From a virus: 64,000 nucleotides of DNA. Below, in pieces: positions 2,553 through 59,249 of this stretch. Where the stretch lies: IMG/VR virus record IMGVR_UViG_3300025534_000213, positions 1,576 to 65,575 of that record; one strand, 5' to 3'. The notes under the pieces were generated by a model, which had not been told where the DNA came from, made no database searches, and saw nothing but the letters and a program-made list of their open reading frames with translations. Position 1 is the first letter of the stretch, and every line of letters starts with the position of its first letter. Both the position numbers and the translations under genes were made by a program.

Positions 2553-2633
2553 CCCGCAATACCGGCTCGCCGTAACAGGACTGCCCCCGGCGAGCCTGAT
2601 TTGAACTGCCTGCCATTTGAGAAAGCCATTGAG

Positions 2634-5429
2634 ATGCAGAGCGAGGTTACTGACCGCGAGCGCCGTCTCGCGAACGATCTCCGTGTGACGACACCCGAGG
2701 CGCTGCCCGCCTACCTGCATTTTTGGGGCAAGGCCACTCCGCCATCAGGTGCCGCCATGGGATGGCATCCGGCTGTTTATCACATGCTTGATGTGGCGGC
2801 CTGCTTCGATGTCCTGTTCGAGCATTGCCGACCGTCTTGGCTCGATCCTGCATACAAGGCGCATCTGTTGCTGCTGGTTGCCTTGCATGATATTGGCAAG
2901 ATAACGCGGTCTTTCCAACAACAGGCTCCGGACTACTGGCCTGCGGCGCTACTCGGGCCATTCAAGAAGGTTGCCCGGTCCAACCGCCACGATACGCTCG
3001 GCCACGATATCATCGGCTCCTTGCTGAGATACGAACTTGAGGCGCTTCTACCGGAATCCAAATATCAATTACACTGGTTGCCACTCGTGCGTGCCACCAC
3101 GGGTCACCATGGAAAGCCGCCGAAAGGCGTTGGTAGTCCTAATCTACCGCCAGAGGATTGCTGCGACACCTGCCAGACGCATGTGAGGAACATCTTCAAG
3201 GATTTCTGCGATCTGTTCCTCGGTAAAAACCGGGGCAACGCCATACTCGACAAGGCGGCGCCATCCGAGCAGGTTAAGCGGATGCACTGGTGGTTCGCCG
3301 GGATCGTGAATCTGGCGGATTGGATCGGGTCCTCGTCCGCGTGGTTCCCATACACGGCACCGAGTATGCCGCTCGACCGATATTACGAACTCGCGCGTCA
3401 ACGCGCCGAGGTGGCGTGCTCGCAGGCTGGTGTCCTCCCTGCCAAGAGCAATCGCCTGCTCAGCTTCGCCGAGTTGTTCGGCATTCCTACGCCGTCGCCT
3501 GTGCAGAACTGGTGCGCCACGGTCCCACTTCCCGAGGGCGGAAAACTAGTATTCATCGAGGACGAGACCGGGAATGGCAAGACTGAGGCAGCCTTGATGC
3601 TGGCTCACCGCATGATGGTGGCTGGCGATGCAACAGGGCTGTTCTGCGCCATGCCGACCATGGCGACCGCCAATGCGATGTATGATCGGTGCGGGAAGTA
3701 TTTCCGGCGGTTCTTCGCCGCTGGCACGAAGCCGTCGCTGGCTCTGGCGCATGGCAAGAAGCACCTCAACGAGGCATTCCAACTGTCCCTCTCGCGGCAT
3801 CTCCACCAGAGCGTCCGCGATATAGAAGATGGCGACCTTGATGAGGGCGACACGACAGGTGTGGAATGTGCCACGTGGATCGGTAGCGATAACCGTCGGG
3901 CCTTCTTGGCCGACGTGGGCGTTGGTACGATAGATCAGGCCCTCCTAGGCGTGATGCGCAGCAAGTTCGGAATGCTGCGGCTTTTCGGGTTGTCGCGCCG
4001 TGTGCTCATCATTGACGAGGCGCACGCCTACGACTCCTACATGATCGAGATCATCAAGCGGTTGCTGGAATTCCATGCTCGGCTTGGCGGGTCGGCGATC
4101 ATCCTCTCCGCCACCTTGCCGCTCTCCATGCGCAACCAGCTTGCGGCTGCCTTCGCCACGGGCCTCGGAAATACGACGCTACCACCCTTGACCGCGACCG
4201 GATACCCATTGGCGACCATGGTGTCGGCCAGTGGCGTGGTCGAGGAGCATGATGCGCTGGTGGCCGGGACCCCTCGAAAGCGTGGCCGTGGCCCCGCGCG
4301 GGTCGAGGTTATCAGCGATTTCGAAAGCGTGCTTCGTGAGATCGAAAACGCGGCCCAGTCCCACGCGACCGTAGCGTGGATCAGGAACACCGTGCGGGAT
4401 GCGACCACGGCAGCCCGCATCCTTCGTGAGCGGGGACTGGACGTGACCTTGTTCCATGCCCGCTTCACCGCCGGAGACCGTGCGGACATCGAGACCGAGG
4501 TTCTTGCTGCATTCGGGAAGGAGAGTAGCCGTCCCGGCCGGGATGGGCGGGTGGTCGTAGCGACGCAGGTCATCGAGCAAAGCCTTGACCTCGATTTCGA
4601 CCTGATCGTCTCGGACCCGGCGCCCGTTGACCTCCTGATTCAGCGGGCCGGGCGTCTCTGGCGCCATATCCGCGATGACCGCCCTCTGAGCGAGCCTCGT
4701 TTCATTATCGCGGCTCCAATGCCCGTTGATGACCCGCCTTCCGGATGGCTCGAAGGGATGACGGAGGACGATCTCACCGTCGCCGCTGCGCGGATTATCT
4801 ATCGGGATGCGGCGTTGCTTTGGCGGAGCGTCCGAATCACCAAGGGAGAGGGCTCCATCGGCAGCTTGGATGGCATCCGCCGAATGGTGGAGGCCGCCTA
4901 CGACAAGAGGAGCTTCGGAGCATATGGAAAGCAGTTTATCCCGTCCGGCTTGGAATCCTCCGCTGAATGGGCAGCTACAGGAGACAAAAAATCTACGTGG
5001 ATGGGCCAGAATGCCCCCCTGACCTACATCGGCGGCTACTCCGGGGGACAATGGGAAGATGACACGCTGATTCAGACCCGTCTTGGCAAGCCAGCCGTGG
5101 TGGCCCGCTTGGCCCGTGAGGAAAACGGCAAGCTAGTCCCGTTCTACCCGTCCGAGCGGCCGGGTGCGGCGGCTTGGGCCATGTCCGAGGTAACCTCGTC
5201 CTACGTGGACCTCACTCACATCGAGTACGAGGCGAGGGTCGATGCTCTGGTACGCTCTGCCAAGCGTAACTGGGGAAGTAACGACAAGCGCATACCGCTC
5301 ATCCCGTTGCAGGCCCAGCCAGACGGTAGCTGGAAGGCGGTTGTGTCGTTCGGAACCAGCGATGGCGAAACGGGCGACCTGCTCATCAGCTACCACCAGC
5401 GCGAAGGATTTTTTGCCAAGCGCACCTAA
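2634..5429 (+). CDS. cas3: CRISPR-associated HD nuclease-helicase Cas3 (type I-E)
   Basis: HD-domain motifs HMLDVA, LHDIGK, GHHG, LADWIGS; SF2 helicase motifs TGNGKT, DEAH, LSAT, ATQVIEQSLD, QRAGRLWRH; ATG at 2634 preferred over TTG at 2601. Confidence 0.96.
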   Translation: MQSEVTDRERRLANDLRVTTPEALPAYLHFWGKATPPSGAAMGWHPAVYHMLDVAACFDVLFEHCRPSWLDPAYKAHLLLLVALHDIGKITRSFQQQAPDYWPAALLGPFKKVARSNRHDTLGHDIIGSLLRYELEALLPESKYQLHWLPLVRATTGHHGKPPKGVGSPNLPPEDCCDTCQTHVRNIFKDFCDLFLGKNRGNAILDKAAPSEQVKRMHWWFAGIVNLADWIGSSSAWFPYTAPSMPLDRYYELARQRAEVACSQAGVLPAKSNRLLSFAELFGIPTPSPVQNWCATVPLPEGGKLVFIEDETGNGKTEAALMLAHRMMVAGDATGLFCAMPTMATANAMYDRCGKYFRRFFAAGTKPSLALAHGKKHLNEAFQLSLSRHLHQSVRDIEDGDLDEGDTTGVECATWIGSDNRRAFLADVGVGTIDQALLGVMRSKFGMLRLFGLSRRVLIIDEAHAYDSYMIEIIKRLLEFHARLGGSAIILSATLPLSMRNQLAAAFATGLGNTTLPPLTATGYPLATMVSASGVVEEHDALVAGTPRKRGRGPARVEVISDFESVLREIENAAQSHATVAWIRNTVRDATTAARILRERGLDVTLFHARFTAGDRADIETEVLAAFGKESSRPGRDGRVVVATQVIEQSLDLDFDLIVSDPAPVDLLIQRAGRLWRHIRDDRPLSEPRFIIAAPMPVDDPPSGWLEGMTEDDLTVAAARIIYRDAALLWRSVRITKGEGSIGSLDGIRRMVEAAYDKRSFGAYGKQFIPSGLESSAEWAATGDKKSTWMGQNAPLTYIGGYSGGQWEDDTLIQTRLGKPAVVARLAREENGKLVPFYPSERPGAAAWAMSEVTSSYVDLTHIEYEARVDALVRSAKRNWGSNDKRIPLIPLQAQPDGSWKAVVSFGTSDGETGDLLISYHQREGFFAKRT

Positions 5430-5437
5430 AAAGTTCG

Positions 5438-5502
5438 TTGACCAAACGATGATACGCTGGTAGCGAGAGCCGCACAGACATCACCGCACCGATTTCAGAA
5501 GG
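5438..5502 (+). promoter_or_regulatory. putative promoter and leader motif of the Cascade operon
   Basis: A-tract + GTTGACC -35 box like other promoters in the window (weak -10), followed by GATTTCAGAAGG at 5491-5502. Confidence 0.4.
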
Positions 5503-5514
5503 CGTTTTGGCAGA

Positions 5515-7134
5515 ATGAACCTGCTCACCGACCCGTGGATTCCCGTATTTTTGAAGGACGGCACCAAGGCCACAATCAGCCCGGCGGGTATCGCCGATCA
5601 ACAGAACCCGCCCATGCGCGTGGCGTGGCCGCGCCCTGATTTCCGCCTCGGTGCGATGGAACTCCTGATCGGCATAATGGCGGTGGCATTGGCCCCTTCG
5701 ACCGAGGAAAGGCTGCTGGAATTGCAGAGCGAGAAGCCGTCGGAGGCCGATCTCCGGACTTTCTTTGCCCCCATAGCCCACGCCTTCAATTTCGACGGGG
5801 ATGGCCCGCGCTTCATGCAGGACTTTGATCCGCATTTCGAAGTGCGCAAAAAGGAAAATGAGAACTGCGACCCAATCCTGCTGTTGATTGATGGACCCGG
5901 TGGTCGGACCGCCGAAAACAATACTGACTGGTTCGTCAAGCGCGCACCCGACAAGGTAGTCATGTCTCGCGCCACGGCCGCGATGGCGCTGTACGTGTTG
6001 CAGACCTATGCCCCTAAGGGCGGCAGAGGGCACATGACTGGTTTTCGCGGAGGTGGACCACTGACAACCTTGGTGATTCCGTTCCGCGATGCGACCCTGT
6101 ATGACATCGTGCTTGCCAACCTCCCTGTTTTGAAAACGCAAGGTCCGATCCAGCCGAGCGACCATGCGCACATCTTCTCGTGGCTGGCTCCAATGCCAAC
6201 CACACTGACCCCCCAAAATGTGCATGAGTTGCAGGCGTTCTTTGGGATGCCACGCCGCATTCGGCTGCATTTCCAAGATGTGGACGGTGCGACGTGCCAT
6301 ATCACGGGTGATGCTGACACGAAGGTGGTCACCGGTTTCCGCCGAGCCCCCTATGGGATTAGGTACAGCGACATCGTGATGCGGCACCCGCTGAGCCCGT
6401 ATGCTCCCAAGAAGGGTAAGTACGAAGCGGTGGCCGCAAAGAGCACGGGTATCGGTTGGAACGACTATCTCGGCCTCGCTGTTGGCAACTCCGCAACCAA
6501 GCAGGATTCAGCCGCGTCCGTGACGACGTTTCGTGACCTCGTCAACAACGTTGACGCGCGTATCTATGCGGCCGGGTTCGCAATGGCCGATGCTAAGGCC
6601 GAGGCATTCGTTGAGGCCGAAATGCCCATGCCTCTGTTCACCGACAAGACTGCGCAGGCCAAGTTCGATAGGCGCCTTACGGATTTGATTGAGGCCAGTG
6701 CCCTCGTTTCGAAGCACCTCCAAGCCGCAGTCTTTTATGCGACCGGCTCGGAGGCGCGCACGTTCGACGTAAACAAGACACTTATGCATATGGTCGAGCG
6801 CCGGTTCTGGGAAGAAACCCAGAACCCGTTCAACAAGACCCTGAGTAATTGGACGCGCGCGATCCGCGCCGAAACGCCTCTACCGGACAACTGGGGCGAC
6901 GAATGGCGTGAGGAGCTAAAACGCGTCGCGCTGAATATCTACGACGACTTTGTTGACCTCGATCCGAAGCATCCCCGCTTCGCCAAAGCAGGAAAGGCGG
7001 CAAGCGGTAAAGAGAAATCGCCGTATGTCCGGGCGGTGGAACAGAGAAAGCGTCTTTGGTTTCTGCTACACGGATACAGCGAGGCCGGGTGCGATCTGTA
7101 TCGCAAGCTCGGGCTGCTGCCTACTTCGTCCTGA
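5515..7134 (+). CDS. cas8e: Cascade large subunit Cas8e (CasA/Cse1)
   Basis: MNLLTDPWIPV start, FNFDGDGPRFMQD, GGRGHMTGFRGGGPLTTLV, FFGMPRRIRL, HPLSPY; lies after cas3. Confidence 0.95.
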   Translation: MNLLTDPWIPVFLKDGTKATISPAGIADQQNPPMRVAWPRPDFRLGAMELLIGIMAVALAPSTEERLLELQSEKPSEADLRTFFAPIAHAFNFDGDGPRFMQDFDPHFEVRKKENENCDPILLLIDGPGGRTAENNTDWFVKRAPDKVVMSRATAAMALYVLQTYAPKGGRGHMTGFRGGGPLTTLVIPFRDATLYDIVLANLPVLKTQGPIQPSDHAHIFSWLAPMPTTLTPQNVHELQAFFGMPRRIRLHFQDVDGATCHITGDADTKVVTGFRRAPYGIRYSDIVMRHPLSPYAPKKGKYEAVAAKSTGIGWNDYLGLAVGNSATKQDSAASVTTFRDLVNNVDARIYAAGFAMADAKAEAFVEAEMPMPLFTDKTAQAKFDRRLTDLIEASALVSKHLQAAVFYATGSEARTFDVNKTLMHMVERRFWEETQNPFNKTLSNWTRAIRAETPLPDNWGDEWREELKRVALNIYDDFVDLDPKHPRFAKAGKAASGKEKSPYVRAVEQRKRLWFLLHGYSEAGCDLYRKLGLLPTSS

Positions 7135-7172
7135 GCCCCCTTCATCGCATAACGCTTTTTTTAGAGATTGAA

Positions 7173-7682
7173 ATGTCAGACATTGAAAAGGCGACGATCA
7201 AAGTTGGCGCGGAAGCCTATGAATGGTGGCGGGGGTTGCAACCGGCGCCGGTTGGAAGCGGTCGAGGTGACAAGGCCGCGCTCAGCAAGTTATCGCGTGC
7301 TCCTGATCCCCTGTCTGCCTTAATGGTTTCTGCCACCATCGATCTGTGGAAAAGGCTCGGAAGCAAAGACTACGATGCGGATCGGGTTGCCGTTATGGCT
7401 GCCGTGCTTGCACGGGTCAAAAAGAACGATTCGGAGCGAGTTGCGCGCAGGCTTGGCGAGGGGCGGCGAGTTAAGGAGGTGCGATTCAGCCGTCTTATCA
7501 GCACGGACGATCCGACCGACTTGATGAGGCAGTTGGGTCGGGTAATTCGCATGATCGACGATTGTGCCAACGTTAGGGATTTGGCAGAGTCAATTTATGA
7601 CTTGACTGATCCTTTGCGCGCTGGTAGTCGTCGCCGTCGTTGGTTGTACGACTACCATGGCGCGTCTATGGACGACGCCTGA
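7173..7682 (+). CDS. cas11: Cascade small subunit Cas11 (CasB/Cse2)
   Basis: WWRGL...GDKAALSKLSRA, AAVLARVK, RFSRLI, RRRWLYDY; lies between cas8e and cas7. Confidence 0.9.
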   Translation: MSDIEKATIKVGAEAYEWWRGLQPAPVGSGRGDKAALSKLSRAPDPLSALMVSATIDLWKRLGSKDYDADRVAVMAAVLARVKKNDSERVARRLGEGRRVKEVRFSRLISTDDPTDLMRQLGRVIRMIDDCANVRDLAESIYDLTDPLRAGSRRRRWLYDYHGASMDDA

Positions 7683-7714: not shown

Positions 7715-8914
7715 ATGACCACATTCATTCAGCTTCACTTCCTGACGAAGTATCCGGTCAGCAACCCGAACCGCGATGATCTGGGGCAGCCCAAGACGGT
7801 GAATTTCTGGGGCACCCCTCGCGGTCGCATCTCCTCGCAGTCGCTCAAGAGAGCCGTGCGGACCTCGGAAATCTTCCGGGAAGCGTTCACGAACAATCCG
7901 TTGGGTGTGCGCACGAAGCTCGTCGGCCAGAAGATCATCGAGCACCTGACCGGTCAGGGTGTTGCGGACGATAAGGCAACCGAGGTTGCCGTCGCCCTCG
8001 TCGCCCTTCTCAACGACAAGAAGGCCGAGGATGAAAAGAAGAACAAGAAGGGTGCCAAGAATGGTGGCAAGAAGGGCAGCAAGAAGGGCAGCAAGAAGGG
8101 TGCCGACGCCAACGAGGTCGTAGAGGATGCGTTCGGTGAGGATGTGGAGGATATCGACGACAACGAGGAGTCGGAAAAGTCCGATTCCGCCAAGAAGATC
8201 GTCTTGGAGACGGGCCAGCTTGTGCATCTGTCGCCCTTCGAGATCGACCAGATCATGAAGGTTGCGACCGAAGTGGCGAACGGCGCTCCGGTACCAACCA
8301 GCATTGATGTGCTGCTGAGCAATAAGAACATCAGCCCGGATATCGCCATGCATGGGCGCATGATGGCGAGCCATCCCCACTATACCTGCGAGGCGGCCGT
8401 GCAGGTATCGCATTCCATTACCACACACGCCGTGAAGGTTGAGGATGACTTTTTCTCGGCGGTGGATGACTGGAACAATGCGAACAAAGGCTCGGGCCAC
8501 ATCGGTGACCGAAGCTTTCTCGGCGGCGGCGTGTTCCACACCTATGTCTGCATCAACTATGACCTGTTGGTCAGCAATCTGGGTGGAAACACGGAACTGG
8601 CAAAAGAGACCATGGTGACCTTTCTGCGCGCCATGATGGAGGATGGTCCGCGTGGGATGCAGGCATCCTACGGGTCGCGTGTCCGCACCGGTTATGTGCT
8701 GATAGAGCGTGGGACCCAAATGCCGTTCACCAGCCAGACGCATTTCGACGTTCCGGTAACCGGTAACGACCTCATGTTGGAGTCCATTAAGCGTTTGCGG
8801 GACGAGCGAGATGCAACGCACGCACTCTACGACGAGGAGATTGACAAAATCGAATTCGGTTCGGGCCTGCCCACCAAACCTAAGGACCTGTACGATTTCC
8901 TGAGGGACACGTGA
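7715..8914 (+). CDS. cas7: Cascade backbone Cas7 (CasC/Cse4)
   Basis: FIQLHFLTKYPVSNPNRDDLGQPKT, RISSQSLKR, DIAMHGRM, AAVQVSHSITTH, EDDFFSAVDD. Confidence 0.96.
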   Translation: MTTFIQLHFLTKYPVSNPNRDDLGQPKTVNFWGTPRGRISSQSLKRAVRTSEIFREAFTNNPLGVRTKLVGQKIIEHLTGQGVADDKATEVAVALVALLNDKKAEDEKKNKKGAKNGGKKGSKKGSKKGADANEVVEDAFGEDVEDIDDNEESEKSDSAKKIVLETGQLVHLSPFEIDQIMKVATEVANGAPVPTSIDVLLSNKNISPDIAMHGRMMASHPHYTCEAAVQVSHSITTHAVKVEDDFFSAVDDWNNANKGSGHIGDRSFLGGGVFHTYVCINYDLLVSNLGGNTELAKETMVTFLRAMMEDGPRGMQASYGSRVRTGYVLIERGTQMPFTSQTHFDVPVTGNDLMLESIKRLRDERDATHALYDEEIDKIEFGSGLPTKPKDLYDFLRDT

Positions 8915-9645
8915 GCCAAATGCGGACCTACCTCACCTACGGCATCTACGCACCCATCGGTTCGATGGGTGCGGTAGCGGTGGCCTCGAAGCGTGTGGGC
9001 TGGGATAGGCCCGCACGCTCGGCGATGCTCGGAATGATTGGTGCCGCGCTTGGGATCGAGCGTGACGATGAGAATGCGATCCAGACCCTTGAGCAGGAAA
9101 CGGGGTTGGCGATGCTGATCGTCCGTCCCGGTACTCCCTTCGAGGATTTTCACACGACGCAGGTCCCGAGTGGGAAGGGAAACTGGCGCACTCGGGCCGA
9201 GGAACTCGCTGCCGTGAAAGGCAAAGACAACCCGATTGTCTCATGGCGGGAATATCGCAGCGATGTGGCGCTGCTCGCCACCGTCTGGCATAGGACCGAT
9301 ACACCTCGGTTTCCGCTGGTTCGTATTGCGGAGGCTCTCGAACACCCCCATTTCGTGCTCTACCTTGGCCGTAAGGCGTGCCCGCTCGGACTGCCCTTGG
9401 CGCCCCGCATTGTTGAGGCCGAGACGCCCATCGCCGCCCTCATGAACCGGCGTGACACCGGACCTGAGCGCAAGTTCTTCAAGAAAGAGAGACCCAGTCG
9501 TGCGCCGCAGCCCTATATTGTGCTCGATGTAAGCGATGCACCGGAAGGGGAGGCCGCTCGCATCGAATTTCGATCTGATCGGTTGGCTAGCCGGAAGCGG
9601 TGGCAGTTCCTCCCGCGCGGTGAGGCCATCATTCCGCTTGTCTGA
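8911..9645 (+). CDS. cas5: Cascade subunit Cas5 (CasD)
   Basis: APIGSMG...R...PARSAMLGMIGAALGIER, DFHT, REY..D, LYLGRKACP. Confidence 0.95.
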   Translation: MSQMRTYLTYGIYAPIGSMGAVAVASKRVGWDRPARSAMLGMIGAALGIERDDENAIQTLEQETGLAMLIVRPGTPFEDFHTTQVPSGKGNWRTRAEELAAVKGKDNPIVSWREYRSDVALLATVWHRTDTPRFPLVRIAEALEHPHFVLYLGRKACPLGLPLAPRIVEAETPIAALMNRRDTGPERKFFKKERPSRAPQPYIVLDVSDAPEGEAARIEFRSDRLASRKRWQFLPRGEAIIPLV

Positions 9646-9705
9646 CCGAGAAAATTCGGTTTAACTGGACGCAATTACAAAAGCCATTTGGACCTCGGAA
9701 ACGAT

Positions 9706-10410
9706 ATGTATATCAGCCGCATCACGCTGTTCCCCAAACCGTCCTTTGTTGCCCTTCGGACGCTGCTTCTTCCTGACGAGACTGGTGCTCGGGTTGCGGC
9801 GGCCCACAAGCTGATGTGGAGCTTGTTTGGCGATCATGAGGGCCGCGAAGCTGACTTCCTTTGGAAGGATGCGGGCAAGGATACCTTCTTGGTCCTGTCG
9901 AGACGGAAGCCCATGGCCGGACAGGATGCCACGGAGGTGTGCTCACTGTTCAGGATCGAGACCAAGCAGTTCGATCCTGCAATCAAGGCGGGTGACGAGT
10001 TGGAGTTTTCCCTGCGCGTCAACGCTACCGTTGCGACCAAGCGTGATGGCGAGAGAGACGGCCACCGCGAGGACATCCTTACTCGTGCTATCCGCGAATT
10101 GCGTGCTCGGGAACCGGGTTTCACGCGTGCGTGCCGGGACGAGGCCATTAACGAGGCGGCTTATAAGTGGCTAGTGCAACGGTCTGCCGCCAATGGCTTT
10201 GCGGTCGGTTCGAATACGTTCTCCGTGGAGAATCGGGATTTCGTCTCCGTGCCGCGCGAAAATGGACCGCCTATGCGGTTCGGAATGATGGACCTCGCCG
10301 GTCGAATCAGGGTGTCGGACCCGGATGCATTCAAGGCGCGCCTGATCGCGGGTTTCGGGCGGGCGAAGCGGTTTGGCTGCGGCCTGATGCTGGTTCGCCC
10401 GGCACGGTAG
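9706..10410 (+). CDS. cas6e: crRNA-processing endoribonuclease Cas6e (CasE/Cse3)
   Basis: MYISRI, HKLMWSLF, FLW, FSLRVNAT, and the C-terminal Gly-rich loop GFGRAKRFGCGLML. Confidence 0.95.
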   Translation: MYISRITLFPKPSFVALRTLLLPDETGARVAAAHKLMWSLFGDHEGREADFLWKDAGKDTFLVLSRRKPMAGQDATEVCSLFRIETKQFDPAIKAGDELEFSLRVNATVATKRDGERDGHREDILTRAIRELRAREPGFTRACRDEAINEAAYKWLVQRSAANGFAVGSNTFSVENRDFVSVPRENGPPMRFGMMDLAGRIRVSDPDAFKARLIAGFGRAKRFGCGLMLVRPAR

Positions 10411-10474
10411 TTCACGTTTTGGTGAAAACTGTGTCGAGACATTACTCTTTGAATATCAATGGCCTACAGCAAGG
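10411..10474 (+). promoter_or_regulatory. CRISPR leader
   Basis: 64-bp AT-rich segment between the cas6e stop and the first repeat; IHF-like TATCAAtggcCTA at 10454-10466; TTTTGGTGAAAA about 50 nt upstream of the repeat. Confidence 0.75.
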
Positions 10475-11052
10475 GTGTTCCCCGCGCGTGCGGGGATGAA
10501 CCGAGAGGATGGGATCACCGCATATTTAGGGTGACGTGTTCCCCGCGCGTGCGGGGATGAACCGGTTGATGTGCTGGGTTCGCCTGCCCGCGCCGAGTGT
10601 TCCCCGCGCGTGCGGGGATGAACCGGCCGCTGACGGCTTCGCCCGCGATGCAGGGCCGTGTTCCCCGCGCGTGCGGGGATGAACCGAAGGTCTCGCCCGG
10701 TGGGGCTGCGGTGTCCTCGTGTTCCCCGCGCGTGCGGGGATGAACCGTCATGCGGGTCATAATATGCACGCCAGATCGCGTGTTCCCCGCGCGTGCGGGG
10801 ATGAACCGGTGCTGGGCCTCATGGCGGACGAGGTCGCAGAGTGTTCCCCGCGCGTGCGGGGATGAACCGCGCATTGCTCAACGGGCTGGCATCGCCACCG
10901 GGTGTTCCCCGCGTGTGCGGGGATGAACCGTCCAGCGCATTGCACCGGAGCGGCGCGCCGTGGTGTTCCCCGCGCGTGCGGGGATGAACCGTCGCCGCCA
11001 TCCTTCAGCAGGAGGCGATGTTCGTGTTCCCCGCGCGTGCGGGGACAACAAA
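10475..11052 (+). CRISPR. type I-E CRISPR array: 10 repeats, 9 spacers of 32 nt
   Basis: Repeat GTGTTCCCCGCGCGTGCGGGGATGAACCG (29 nt) starts at 10475, 10536, 10597, 10658, 10719, 10780, 10841, 10902 (C>T at 10914), 10963 and 11024 (3' end degenerate); constant 61-nt period. Confidence 0.99.
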
Positions 11053-19887: not shown

Positions 19888-19914
19888 TCGCGCCGCTGCT
19901 AAATAGCGGCGTGA
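19888..19914 (+). promoter_or_regulatory. late promoter within a hairpin that sequesters the GTG start codon
   Basis: Stem TCGCGCCGCT / AGCGGCGTGA (10 bp with one G-U), loop GCTAAAT; CTAAATA at 19899-19905. Confidence 0.65.
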
Positions 19915-20234
19915 CTGAAAGCTACATTTACGTCATTGCTGCATCAGAGGCAGGCCCGGTGAAGTTGGGCGTCACTGCCGACCCCGCCCGCCGTCTGAAA
20001 CAGCTACAGACCGGTCATCCCGACCGCCTGACCATCTATCACCACGAGCCTGTTGAGGCCGACCTGTGCAAGGCATATGAGCGCCTGCTCCATCGCGACA
20101 TCAATTACCTGCGGCGACGAGGAGAATGGTTCGACATGACGGTTGCCGAGGCCATTTCGCATGTCCAGTTCACGATCATCCAGTACGGCAACGTCACGGA
20201 CTTGGTGGAAAAGGTACGAACGCACAGGGTGTGA
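19911..20234 (+). CDS. T5orf172/MUG113-type GIY-YIG nuclease-family protein
   Basis: YIYVI...VKLG.T.DP.RRLKQLQTG.P...E..LH...GEWF. Confidence 0.85.
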   Translation: MTESYIYVIAASEAGPVKLGVTADPARRLKQLQTGHPDRLTIYHHEPVEADLCKAYERLLHRDINYLRRRGEWFDMTVAEAISHVQFTIIQYGNVTDLVEKVRTHRV

Positions 20235-20708: not shown

Positions 20709-22847
20709 ATGAAGTTGGCCGAGGCCGCGCGCGAGATCGAGCGTTTCTCGCTGCCTGCCGAACAGACTTTCCGAATCAAGACGACCGGGCGGGCCTTTCG
20801 CATCCTGTCCAGCGGTCTGTACCGCAACAAGATTCGAGCCATCATCCGCGAGCTAAGCTGCAACGCCTTCGATGCGCATGTGATGGCAGGCTGCCGGGAT
20901 AAGCCCTTCCGCGTCCATTTGCCGAACGCGCTGGAACCGTTCTTTTCGGTTCGCGACGATGGCGTGGGCCTGTCGCGCGATGACGTGGTGAACGTTTTCA
21001 CGGTGTATTTCGAGAGCCCCAAGACGGGCACGAACGATCTCATCGGCGGCCTTGGCCTCGGCTCCAAGGCGCCCTTCTCCTACGTGGACAGCTATACGGT
21101 CACCAGCCGCTTCAACGGCATCAAGACCACCTATGCCGCCTTCATCAACGAGAGCGGCCAGCCCGCCATCGCGCCCATGAGCGAGGAACCGACCGACGAA
21201 GGCAATGGCGTCGAGGTGATGGTGCCAGTGGCCCATTCGAAGGATTTCGCGGAGTTCCGCAGCGAGGCGCGGGACGTGCTGTCCCGCTTCGAGGTCCGTC
21301 CGGAGGTGGTCGGCTGCGCCGAATTCACTTTCATCGACCACGAGCCCTTCCTGAGGGGTACTGGCTGGTCCCTGCCCAAGCGTCTGATTGGAGACGGCTA
21401 CTACTCATCGATGCATCACGCTACCGCGCTGATGGGGAATGTCGCTTACCCGATCACCCCGAACGGGCTCGGGGCGTTGGACGAGCGCGCGCTGACCATC
21501 CTCTCCACGCCTCTGGACATCGAATTCCCCATCGGGGCGCTCGACGTGACGGCCGGGCGCGAGGAACTCTCCTACGACAAGCCGACACTGGCCGCGCTTG
21601 AAGCCCGCGCGCTTGAGATCGCGGCCGAAGCGCCTGCCGTCATCCAGAAGTTGTTCGACGAGTGCCGGACCGAGGTTGAGGCGCGCCGTCTCTACGGCAA
21701 GCTGTTCGGCTACCGTGGCATCGGCGGGAGGCTGGTCGATGTCGGCAAGAACCCGCCGACCTTCCGGGGCAAGCCGGTCACCAGCAAGGACTTCACGGTG
21801 GAGATGGAGAAGTTCGAGGGGCTGCGCTTATTGTACTACTACGACAGGCGCTCCAAGTACTCGCGCTATACCTACATGGCGAAGTCGAGCAGTGACACCC
21901 TCTACCTGCCTTGCGACGAGAACATCACCATCGTGCTGGACGATCTTCCGAGGGGGATGATCTCGCGGATCAACCGCCTGCGCATGACGGAGCCGACCAA
22001 TTCCGTGCTGCTGGTGCAGCGCGTTGCCGAGGATGCCGAGTTCGATGAACTCATCGCCCTGCTCGACGGCTTCAAGATCGTAAAGGGCTCGGAGCTTCCG
22101 AAGCCGCCCCCGGCGCCGCGCGGCAAGACCGTGAAGGTGAAGGTGCTCAATGTCGATGCCTGCAATCACAGCGCGCTTCATCAAGATTCGTGGGATGATG
22201 TGGAGATCGAGGACATCGATGCGGCCGAAGGCGGCATCTACACCATGCGGCGCGGCCATATGGCGGTGGGCAAGAATGGCTCGATTGACCACGAGTTCCT
22301 GACCATCGTGCAATTAGCCACCGGGCTCGGCCTGCTGGGCAAGAACGAGAAGATTTACGGTCTGCACAAGGATGCGCTCAAGACGCTCAGCGCGCAGGGT
22401 GAGTGGCGCGACTTCCGCGAGGTCGTTACGGAGGCCGTGACCCGGCGCGTCACCGATCCAGCGATCATCCGGGCGCTTGCCAACCGGGCGCAGATCACGA
22501 GCCTGAATTCGAGCGTCTACTATCTGGATCGCAACCGGGGTCTGCTGCGGCAAATGGCTCGGCTGCTGCCCGAGGACCATGACCTTCGCGTGTTTGTCAT
22601 GGACTGGGGAACGGCTTTGGTATCGAAGAACGACCTCGATAGTCTGATACTTCTCTGCACCATGCTTGGCGTGCATCAGGAGGTGCCGAACCTGCCGCCG
22701 CTCGTGGACCGCTGGTTCGCGATCATGGAGCGGTATCCGTTGCTCCACGTGTTGGAGACCTACAGGAACAAATCCTTCGAGCCGGACCATCTCGTCGATT
22801 ATGTCCGGTGGATCGACACAAAGGAGGTAGCAAAGGCGGCAGCCTGA
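20709..22847 (+). CDS. rIIA: rIIA-like protein (N-terminal GHKL ATPase)
   Basis: AFRILSSGLYRNKIRAIIRELSCNA.DAH, RDDGVGLS, GGLGLGSKAPFSY, MGNVAYP, GREELSY; followed by rIIB. Confidence 0.9.
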   Translation: MKLAEAAREIERFSLPAEQTFRIKTTGRAFRILSSGLYRNKIRAIIRELSCNAFDAHVMAGCRDKPFRVHLPNALEPFFSVRDDGVGLSRDDVVNVFTVYFESPKTGTNDLIGGLGLGSKAPFSYVDSYTVTSRFNGIKTTYAAFINESGQPAIAPMSEEPTDEGNGVEVMVPVAHSKDFAEFRSEARDVLSRFEVRPEVVGCAEFTFIDHEPFLRGTGWSLPKRLIGDGYYSSMHHATALMGNVAYPITPNGLGALDERALTILSTPLDIEFPIGALDVTAGREELSYDKPTLAALEARALEIAAEAPAVIQKLFDECRTEVEARRLYGKLFGYRGIGGRLVDVGKNPPTFRGKPVTSKDFTVEMEKFEGLRLLYYYDRRSKYSRYTYMAKSSSDTLYLPCDENITIVLDDLPRGMISRINRLRMTEPTNSVLLVQRVAEDAEFDELIALLDGFKIVKGSELPKPPPAPRGKTVKVKVLNVDACNHSALHQDSWDDVEIEDIDAAEGGIYTMRRGHMAVGKNGSIDHEFLTIVQLATGLGLLGKNEKIYGLHKDALKTLSAQGEWRDFREVVTEAVTRRVTDPAIIRALANRAQITSLNSSVYYLDRNRGLLRQMARLLPEDHDLRVFVMDWGTALVSKNDLDSLILLCTMLGVHQEVPNLPPLVDRWFAIMERYPLLHVLETYRNKSFEPDHLVDYVRWIDTKEVAKAAA

Positions 22848-32738: not shown

Positions 32739-32766
32739 GCCACGGCGATAAATAGTCGGCCATGGC
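32739..32766 (+). promoter_or_regulatory. late promoter in an imperfect hairpin covering the ATG
   Basis: ATAAATA at 32748-32754, 7 nt before ATG 32762; GCCAcGGC-GAT pairs with GTCgGCCaTGGC. Confidence 0.55.
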
Positions 32767-58388: not shown

Positions 58389-59249
58389 ATGGAACGCACG
58401 AAGTACATTAAGAACAAGGATTTGCTGGCGGAGATTCACCGAAGCAAGCTGACCTACTGCCACTACATCGACCCCGACTGCACGCAATTCGACGAAATTG
58501 TCGATTCCATCGGCCTTCTCACGCCGGAGTTCATCGAGGCGGCCCGACGGAGGCGAGCGGCCCGGCTCTCGTCAAAGACCACCCCGGTCGATCCGGAAAG
58601 CATCGATCCCGAGACGCTGGTGTTCCGGGTGATGACGACGGAGCACATCCCGAGCGATCCGGCCCGCAAGCGGCGGACGCGGGAAGCGGACGAGGAAATG
58701 CAGGCCAAGGTCCCGTTTCCGGCCTTCAAGCACTACAAGGTCATCGGCGGCAAGCCGGTGGAGGTGCTCCGGTCGCACTGGAAGGGCGATTTCGAGACCG
58801 GTCATTTCTGCATCGATCATGGCAAGATGACCAACCGGCTCGCCATCATGTTCATGATGCTGGTGGACCGGTACTCGCGGCGCGGCAACTGGCGGGGCTA
58901 CACCTATGTCGATGAGATGCGCAGCCACGCGCTGCTACAACTGAGCCAGATCGGCTTGCAGTTCGACGAAAGCAAAAGCGACAACCCTTTTGCGTTCTAC
59001 ACGCAGGTGATCAAGAACTGCTTCACCCGCGTGTTGCACCTTGAGCGGCGCAACCAGAACATCCGCGATGACCTGCTGATCATGGCCGGGGTGAACCCGA
59101 GCTTCACTCGGCAGATCGAGCACGAGATGGCGGAACGTGCCGAGGAGCAGCAGCCGCAGACCGCAGCACAGGCCGCCGATGTCACTTCCACCGACGCGAA
59201 GCAGGCGCCGAAGAAGCGTGGCCGCAAGCCTAAGGCAGAGGTCACGTGA
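58389..59249 (+). CDS. late transcription sigma factor (T4 gp55-like)
   Basis: YIKNKDLLAEI, NWRGYTY.DEM, FDESKSDNPFAFYTQ.I.N.F.R.L..E..NQ; upstream of gp47/gp46 as in T4-like phages. Confidence 0.85.
   Translation: MERTKYIKNKDLLAEIHRSKLTYCHYIDPDCTQFDEIVDSIGLLTPEFIEAARRRRAARLSSKTTPVDPESIDPETLVFRVMTTEHIPSDPARKRRTREADEEMQAKVPFPAFKHYKVIGGKPVEVLRSHWKGDFETGHFCIDHGKMTNRLAIMFMMLVDRYSRRGNWRGYTYVDEMRSHALLQLSQIGLQFDESKSDNPFAFYTQVIKNCFTRVLHLERRNQNIRDDLLIMAGVNPSFTRQIEHEMAERAEEQQPQTAAQAADVTSTDAKQAPKKRGRKPKAEVT

Follow-up and report, generated by a model that had tools for sequence, protein, structure and literature searches.

A type I-E CRISPR array in an uncultivated large phage whose leader-proximal spacer holds the phage's predicted late-promoter hexamer

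The CRISPR-Cas locus and its phage

We analyzed a 64,000-nt window of viral DNA, which corresponds to bases 1576 through 65575 of a 191,473-nt virus record with a G+C content of 63%; positions given below are those of the window unless the record is named. The record is classed as linear and as 38% complete by CheckV. Proteins identical to its Cas7, its gp55-like sigma factor, and its ClpP are each encoded on one 484,642-nt contig, and therefore about 60% of the genome lies outside the 191-kb record. Because the record includes portal, major head, baseplate, and tail-fibre genes in addition to the gene for the gp55-like sigma factor, the phage is marked as a large myovirus. Among 398 named phage records, the sigma factor gave its best matches to PA5oct (46.6% identity) and Sinorhizobium phage Phosso (44.1%), with further matches to Atu_ph07 (40.7%) and 121Q (40.1%). 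A clamp loader is also encoded, and the gp33 and gp45 coactivator families are absent from the PHROGs matches of the 167 proteins scanned among the 227 called in this partial record. The relatives of ClpP point, loosely only, to Proteobacteria. ARAGORN made 20 tRNA calls, one of which has an amber-reading CTA anticodon (record positions 71482–71556, minus strand), and record positions 93997–97160 comprise 3.2 kb without a called gene, with five tRNA genes at the end.

A complete type I-E interference set, in the order cas3-cas8e-cas11-cas7-cas5-cas6e, occupies positions 2601 through 10410 (Table 1). All six proteins exceed the NCBIfam cut-offs for type I or type I-E families, and Cas3 is also over the cut-offs for TIGR01587 and TIGR01596. 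Cas7 is divergent, with the nearest other protein being 45% identical and most being about 40% identical; its gene contains a lysine-glycine-rich 12-nt tandem repeat at 8044–8102. The hallmarks of a type I-E array follow, namely a leader, a 29-nt hairpin repeat, 32-nt spacers, and a degenerate last repeat. Within the leader, positions 10454–10466, which lie 21 nt ahead of the first repeat, resemble the consensus for an IHF site. The repeat is identical to that of 17 bacterial loci in GTDB genomes. The exact repeat has no match in viral contigs, and when viral and genome contigs were searched with Cas7, no related locus was recovered. No match to Cas1 was found in the 191-kb record (38% complete), and only 64 nt separate cas6e from the array. 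A search for RNA families at the CRISPR locus yielded 0 matches.

A sigma70-like site precedes cas8e and is predicted to serve as an early promoter, a role assigned by us to a site that is absent from the list produced by the consensus scan. A second site of the same layout (TTGAC, 13 nt, CGCTGGTAG) is present at 7602–7627, inside cas11 and ahead of cas7, so that early transcription of the Cascade operon may start from a matched pair of promoters. Because the plus strand holds no TAAATA from the start of the record to the array and these two sigma70-like sites are present, the cas genes are likely to be expressed early.

The locus belongs both to the type I-E interference modules and to the phage-borne systems without adaptation genes, and its kind has already been described. 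Systems without acquisition genes are reported to be the rule for huge phages, in which some of them target other phages (PMC7162821). The features shared with that group, as it is portrayed there, are a compact array, interference genes, the lack of acquisition genes at the locus, a repeat identical to that of bacterial arrays, and spacers that are thought to hit rival phages (PMC7162821). Our locus differs by its complete type I-E Cascade-Cas3, its divergent Cas7, and the lack of a target in the searches that were run. Comparison can also be made with virus-borne arrays of one or two spacers that rely on host effectors, whose spacers, like those studied here, may act on kin in co-infected cells. 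However, the present array has nine spacers and its own cas genes, and the targeting of kin is a candidate only.

Table 1. Positions of the features discussed, given in window coordinates.
Feature	Position	Strand	Details
cas3	2601–5429	+	HD nuclease fused to helicase; Pfam Cas3_HD E 2e-35, Cas3-like_C_2; start codon uncertain
Sigma70-like site before cas8e (predicted early promoter)	5438–5463	+	TTGAC, 13 nt, CGCTGGTAG
cas8e (cse1)	5515–7134	+	TIGR02547, 181.9 bits (cut-off 70)
cas11 (cse2)	7056–7682	+	TIGR02548, 77.4 bits (cut-off 28.5)
cas7	7715–8914	+	TIGR01869, over cut-off
cas5	8911–9645	+	TIGR01868, over cut-off
cas6e	9688–10410	+	TIGR01907, over cut-off
Leader	10411–10474	+	64 nt, AT-richer; resembles leaders of bacterial arrays with identical repeat
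Type I-E array	10475–11052	+	10 repeats (29 nt each) and 9 spacers (32 nt each); last repeat, at 11024, degenerate
Spacer 1 (leader-proximal)	10504–10535	+	32 nt, 50% G+C; flanking repeats at 10475 and 10536
Weak hairpin in spacer 1	10514–10535	-	hexamer in loop; -6.6 kcal/mol, z -2.85; GTG at 10518–10516
TAAATA in spacer 1	10523–10528	-	spacer positions 20–25; preceded by C
Natural predicted promoter inside strong hairpin	19888–19914	+	hexamer at 19900; covers GTG (19911)
gp55-like late sigma factor gene	58389–59249	+	phrog_12791 E 6e-79; phrog_234 E 6e-23

TAAATA as a predicted late-promoter core

Besides the copy in spacer 1, the window contains 11 copies of the hexamer TAAATA, nine of which are followed, on their own strand, by a called gene no more than 80 nt away. 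The 191-kb record contains 47 copies besides that of the spacer, as compared with 7.8 expected under an order-3 Markov model. By our own gene calls, 44 of these 47 copies are wholly non-coding, as is 17% of the record, and for 38 of the 47 a gene or tRNA on the same strand starts within 100 nt. Genes preceded by the hexamer include those for the portal, the tape-measure, the baseplate, the tail fibre, and a 3610-amino acid virion protein, and also PhoH, tRNAs, and genes of unknown function. The earlier note had described the hexamer as occurring almost only just upstream of late genes, a description that is accurate with respect to the upstream position but only in part with respect to "late", given the presence of PhoH, tRNAs, and unknowns downstream.

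The late promoter of T4 is reported as TATAAATA at positions -13 to -6, and that of Aeh1 as CTAAATA beginning at -12 (PMC1524935); in jumbo phage CBB, ATAAATA is described ahead of structural genes (PMC5259590). In the present genome, a TAAATA core and a gp55-like sigma factor likewise occur together, as is characteristic of T4-type late promoters. The spacing of T4 and Aeh1 puts the predicted start site at an offset of 11 nt, counted from the first T of the hexamer. In four called genes, a start codon lies in frame at exactly this offset (hexamers or starts at record positions 21475, 82138, 133031, and 167130), suggesting that these four may produce leaderless late mRNAs. A further likeness to the T4-type promoters is the C at -12, which precedes the hexamer at 25 of the 47 natural sites as well as in spacer 1. 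On the basis of position, TAAATA can be firmly predicted to be the late-promoter core of this uncultivated phage. We considered whether a purging of TAAATA from coding DNA signals that every copy fires and rejected this argument, because anagrams of the hexamer are about equally rare there (1–7 copies each).

The hairpin and the antisense orientation of the hexamer in spacer 1

The reverse complement of spacer 1 proposed in the earlier note was confirmed letter for letter. In CRISPR arrays, the leader-proximal spacer is usually the newest, and spacer 1 was correctly regarded as such, given that it adjoins the leader and that the degenerate repeat lies at the far end. In sequencing run X1, which may be where this DNA came from, a single contig links spacer 1 to the leader. 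Among the contigs of runs X1 through X3, as retained by a contig filter that drops some, none other than the array itself aligns with spacer 1, a negative result that carries no weight given the filter. In run X2, coverage at a depth of about 4 extends to the leader side and to spacer 9 but not to spacers 1 through 8, and this gap permits no inference on spacer 1 in the X2 strain.

The sequences TCACC and GGTGA that flank the hexamer had been proposed to pair, and indeed they do so, with 3 of 200 shuffled sequences folding as well. However, this pairing does not go beyond chance. When 18 spacer strands were compared, spacer 9 equalled this fold (z -2.86), and the spacer 1 hairpin is at chance level among these strands. 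Of 250 random 32-mers, 5.6% attain a z of -2.5. Two natural sites had been cited as having the same layout, of which 19888–19914 does form such a hairpin (z -3.19, 1 of 200 shuffles as good) but 32739–32766 does not (z -0.44, 58 of 200). Hairpins as a trait of the late promoters of this phage were rejected, since a perfect stem of at least 5 bp flanks 3 of the 47 natural TAAATA sites, with 2.8 expected from swapped flanks, and the mean folding energy is no lower for natural sites (-8.8) than with swapped flanks (-9.0).

The suggestion that the spacer hairpin buries a start codon was not borne out. The GTG is at offset 10 and spans -1 to +2 of the predicted transcript, and its frame runs for 20 codons through the repeat; it has no ribosome-binding site, and the sequence downstream is pyrimidine-rich. 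One natural site also has an in-frame GTG at offset 10, where the called start is further downstream. The site at 19888–19914 is of a different nature. Its GTG at 19911 is at offset 11, which is the predicted +1, and opens a T5orf172/MUG113 (GIY-YIG-like) gene within the layout at 19888–20234. In T4, hairpins that block translation are described over the late promoters of genes e, soc, 49, and I-TevI (PMC3014915). The block of the I-TevI type, as outlined in that source, is fitted in silico by 19888–19914, where the start codon of a GIY-YIG-like gene would be covered by a hairpin with the predicted promoter inside. The spacer does not fit the T4 layout, as its GTG comes one base early, it has no ribosome-binding site, and its stem is weak.

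If the spacer hexamer fires, then its start site is predicted at 10517 from the T4 spacing (PMC1524935). Read on its own strand, the hexamer faces the repeat, the leader, and cas6e in antisense and has no gene downstream, whereas T4-type late promoters lie upstream of a gene on their own strand. The earlier note had proposed that the spacer acts as a gp55-dependent antisense promoter that fires into the leader and cas6e and switches the system off late in infection. Spelled out, RNA polymerase carrying gp55 would start on the minus strand at about 10517 and transcribe repeat 1, then the leader and cas6e, and the spacer would be retained for the resulting shut-down. Because a gp55-like gene is present and T4 late promoters are reported to consist of a -10-like element alone (PMC7892883), antisense firing near 10517 is plausible. 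In addition, the minus strand has no terminator-like site from 10517 down to 8212. Precedent comes from the one case studied, that of Sulfolobales, in which captured spacers are described as bringing cryptic promoter elements that fire in both directions, antisense included (PMC10883916). However, those elements are archaeal TATA-boxes that Cbp1-Cren7 suppresses as noise (PMC10883916), whereas the element described here would answer to the late sigma factor of the phage itself and hence would be timed.

Several observations argue against a retained switch. The element resides in the unit of the array that was added last and is hence the least fixed. A control meant to endure would rather be placed in the leader or the repeat, and the minus strand of the leader lacks any site that differs from the hexamer by one mismatch or less. 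The spacer flanks are in the lowest third of natural-site scores: their profile score is -0.54 bits, a value that 26% of natural sites do not exceed and that 26% of 70 anagram contexts equal or exceed, and the profile fails to separate spacer 1 from anagram contexts. Moreover, the base rates given below account for the occurrence of the hexamer. We saw no sign of selection, and a regulatory function of antisense firing is unlikely; that the spacer has been kept as a late shut-down switch is quite improbable, and that it is the captured late promoter of a rival which now acts as a timed antisense promoter, turning CRISPR-Cas down at late transcription, is more doubtful still.

The source of spacer 1 and the chance of its hexamer

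No credible protospacer of spacer 1 was recovered by any search, with the qualification that the searched collections may omit records very near this genome. A comparison with the genome itself and with viral databases had been recommended. Within the 191-kb record, the best match to spacer 1 is 22 of 32 positions, and the other eight spacers do no better than 23 of 32. Among 50,697 phage records, spacer 1 gave three matches, the best with an E value of 0.9. The whole array matched 42 of these records, the top ones being other arrays and repeat-like sites, and no full spacer match is present among the best 40 of the 42. Searches of 72,556 plasmids gave five matches with E values of 3 or worse. 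In viral contigs, the first 18 nt of spacer 1 gave one match that does not extend, a 16-nt core gave six matches covering 16–20 of 32 positions, and degenerate patterns for two of three candidate reading frames gave one match and 0 matches, respectively, with the lone match being to the antisense strand of a terminase-like gene. In metagenome contigs, a 23-nt core gave 0 matches and a gapped pattern gave 54, the best of them at 24 of 32. At three or fewer mismatches, there were no hits in five virus records that bear gp55. Seventy gp55 loci matched at most 21 of 32 positions, and because all of these loci have a G+C content of 45% or less, they are not close kin.

These results exclude a source of spacer 1 in this genome as far as the 191-kb record extends. 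A self-target would have to be one of the phage's own late promoters beyond the record, with the spacer either repressing that promoter or being a recent and harmful acquisition. The incompleteness of the record leaves room for such a site, and a replicating phage would be expected to supply much of the DNA in a cell. On the other hand, none of the spacers has a close match in the record, and at the natural promoters at most 12 of the 26 flanking bases agree with those of spacer 1. A perfect self-target with a PAM is lethal when Cas3 is active, and lethality would be expected here because Cas3 retains its HD and helicase domains. We consider this origin very unlikely. An AT-richer intergenic stretch of the host chromosome, to be cut or blocked in infection, is the least probable source that we weighed. 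Some spacers of huge phages are reported to target bacterial intergenic regions (PMC7162821), and spacer 1 looks non-coding under the codon model of the phage; nevertheless, there were no matches at three or fewer mismatches in 401 bacterial genomes of one class or in five genomes with the identical repeat, which is a weak test.

The composition of spacer 1 bears on whether it came from the late promoter of another gp55-type jumbo phage. Its 26 flanking bases include 16 G+C, as compared with a mean of 15.7 at natural sites; its codon score is at the 0th percentile, below all but the lowest coding 32-mers of the phage; and the C before the hexamer matches the commonest natural arrangement. All three features fit a promoter source. 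Against such a source, the flank profile does not set spacer 1 apart from anagram contexts, and codons for Pro-Lys-Tyr readily produce the same letters. Spacer 1 itself has an open frame (HPKYAVIPSS), and of the six viral-contig sequences that match its 16-nt core by chance, five (three of four distinct sequences) sit in open frames that read PKYAV. Under four priors of our own choosing, rough posteriors for a GC-rich, gp55-type phage as the source are 0.28, 0.55, 0.43, and 0.74. Spacers 2 through 9 (10565–11023) average 68% G+C compared with 63% for the genome (p 0.04), a hint that their targets have a higher G+C content than close kin, and the spacers show no peptide likeness above shuffles to the proteins called in the 191-kb record. 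Because these two observations favour the lower priors, we give a kin late promoter about two chances in five. The related-phage source that the earlier note proposed is therefore possible, albeit with no protospacer found, and DNA in which the hexamer is no promoter, for example, codons for Pro-Lys-Tyr, is the somewhat likelier origin.

The stronger proposal was that a late promoter of a related phage is favoured as a target since a promoter cannot mutate away. In its favour, the hexamer marks predicted promoters in this phage and in relatives such as CBB (PMC5259590), the range of the posteriors above allows for a kin source, and virus-borne arrays are said often to target related viruses in an account of virus-virus competition by such arrays (PMC11656645). 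Also, run X3 includes a contig (depth 2) with another type I-E array, set apart by three repeat differences, in which a spacer holds TAAATA inside an inverted repeat; this is one spacer among few, without a control, and by eye it matches no natural site of the 191-kb record. However, the hexamer occupies spacer positions 20–25, and the seed, positions 1–8, maps to +14 to +7 of a transcript from such a promoter, with the PAM expected at about +15 to +17, such that the seed would fall in the unconstrained 5' leader of the target transcript. Changes to the PAM and the seed are described as blocking type I-E interference (PMC12871591). With the hexamer outside the seed, the constraint on the promoter would therefore leave an escape route open, and the notion of a spacer aimed at a constrained site is not supported. 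Neither is the hexamer enriched among spacers. It occurs in 4 of 386 distinct bacterial spacers with the identical repeat, as compared with 3–7 for 14 anagrams, in 2 of the 322 same-repeat bacterial spacers with a G+C content of at least 45%, and in 0 of 39 array spacers from virus records, although no array in these two comparison sets is known from a gp55 phage. We rejected a general enrichment on these counts. The composition of the other eight spacers and their lack of likeness to phage proteins likewise speak against warfare aimed at the promoters of kin, and we regard it as improbable.

The frequency of the hexamer indicates how often it would be captured by accident. Among the 381,598 32-mers of the 191-kb record, 2538 (0.67%) contain it on either strand, and the share is 0.5–0.6% for 32-mers beside likely PAMs. 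The former value translates to a 5.8% chance for nine spacers, and source mixtures under the four author-chosen priors put the chance that one or more of the nine carry it at 2.9–4.5%. Its occurrence in a nine-spacer array is thus barely more than chance, at 3–6% or about one array of this size in twenty. In unrelated loci with a G+C content above 58%, only 58 of 84,050 32-mers carry the hexamer (0.07%, from about two sites), as compared with 582 of 55,794 (1.0%) at 45–58% G+C and 175 of 6,471 below 45%. The hexamer is accordingly about 10-fold commoner in this gp55 phage than in other GC-rich DNA and rarer than in DNA of 45–58% G+C. A chance of 3–6% is not negligible, and the event fell on the newest spacer (1 in 9 if position is random), which counts against ordinary capture.

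Given a chance of about 1 in 20 and the lack of a target in the searches, spacer 1 is likely to be ordinary DNA of a rival, randomly captured and guiding DNA cleavage, rather than a regulatory switch (probability about 0.78). Cascade-Cas3 cuts DNA whatever its coding content. Under this reading, Cas1-Cas2 of the host would act in trans to capture a spacer next to a PAM, sigma70-type early promoters would express the cas genes, and Cascade-Cas3 would cleave a co-infecting element regardless of what the hexamer does. Late firing by gp55 from the hexamer would then generate antisense RNA as a by-product, which would last only while spacer 1 stays in the array.

A phage type V system is described as aimed at integrative elements (10.64898/2026.04.20.719267). 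In the literature searched, which covered few subscription papers, we found no published report of a phage spacer that carries the late promoter of the phage itself and no published case in which spacer capture rewired the timing of a CRISPR locus. Most likely, spacer 1 is simply another spacer of a type I-E system carried by a phage and is of little consequence. Should its source turn out to be a late promoter of kin, it would be a direct case of a jumbo phage armed against a second phage of the gp55 type. A real antisense start that alters Cas output would show that a captured spacer can change when a CRISPR locus is active, and this would amount to regulation by acquisition.
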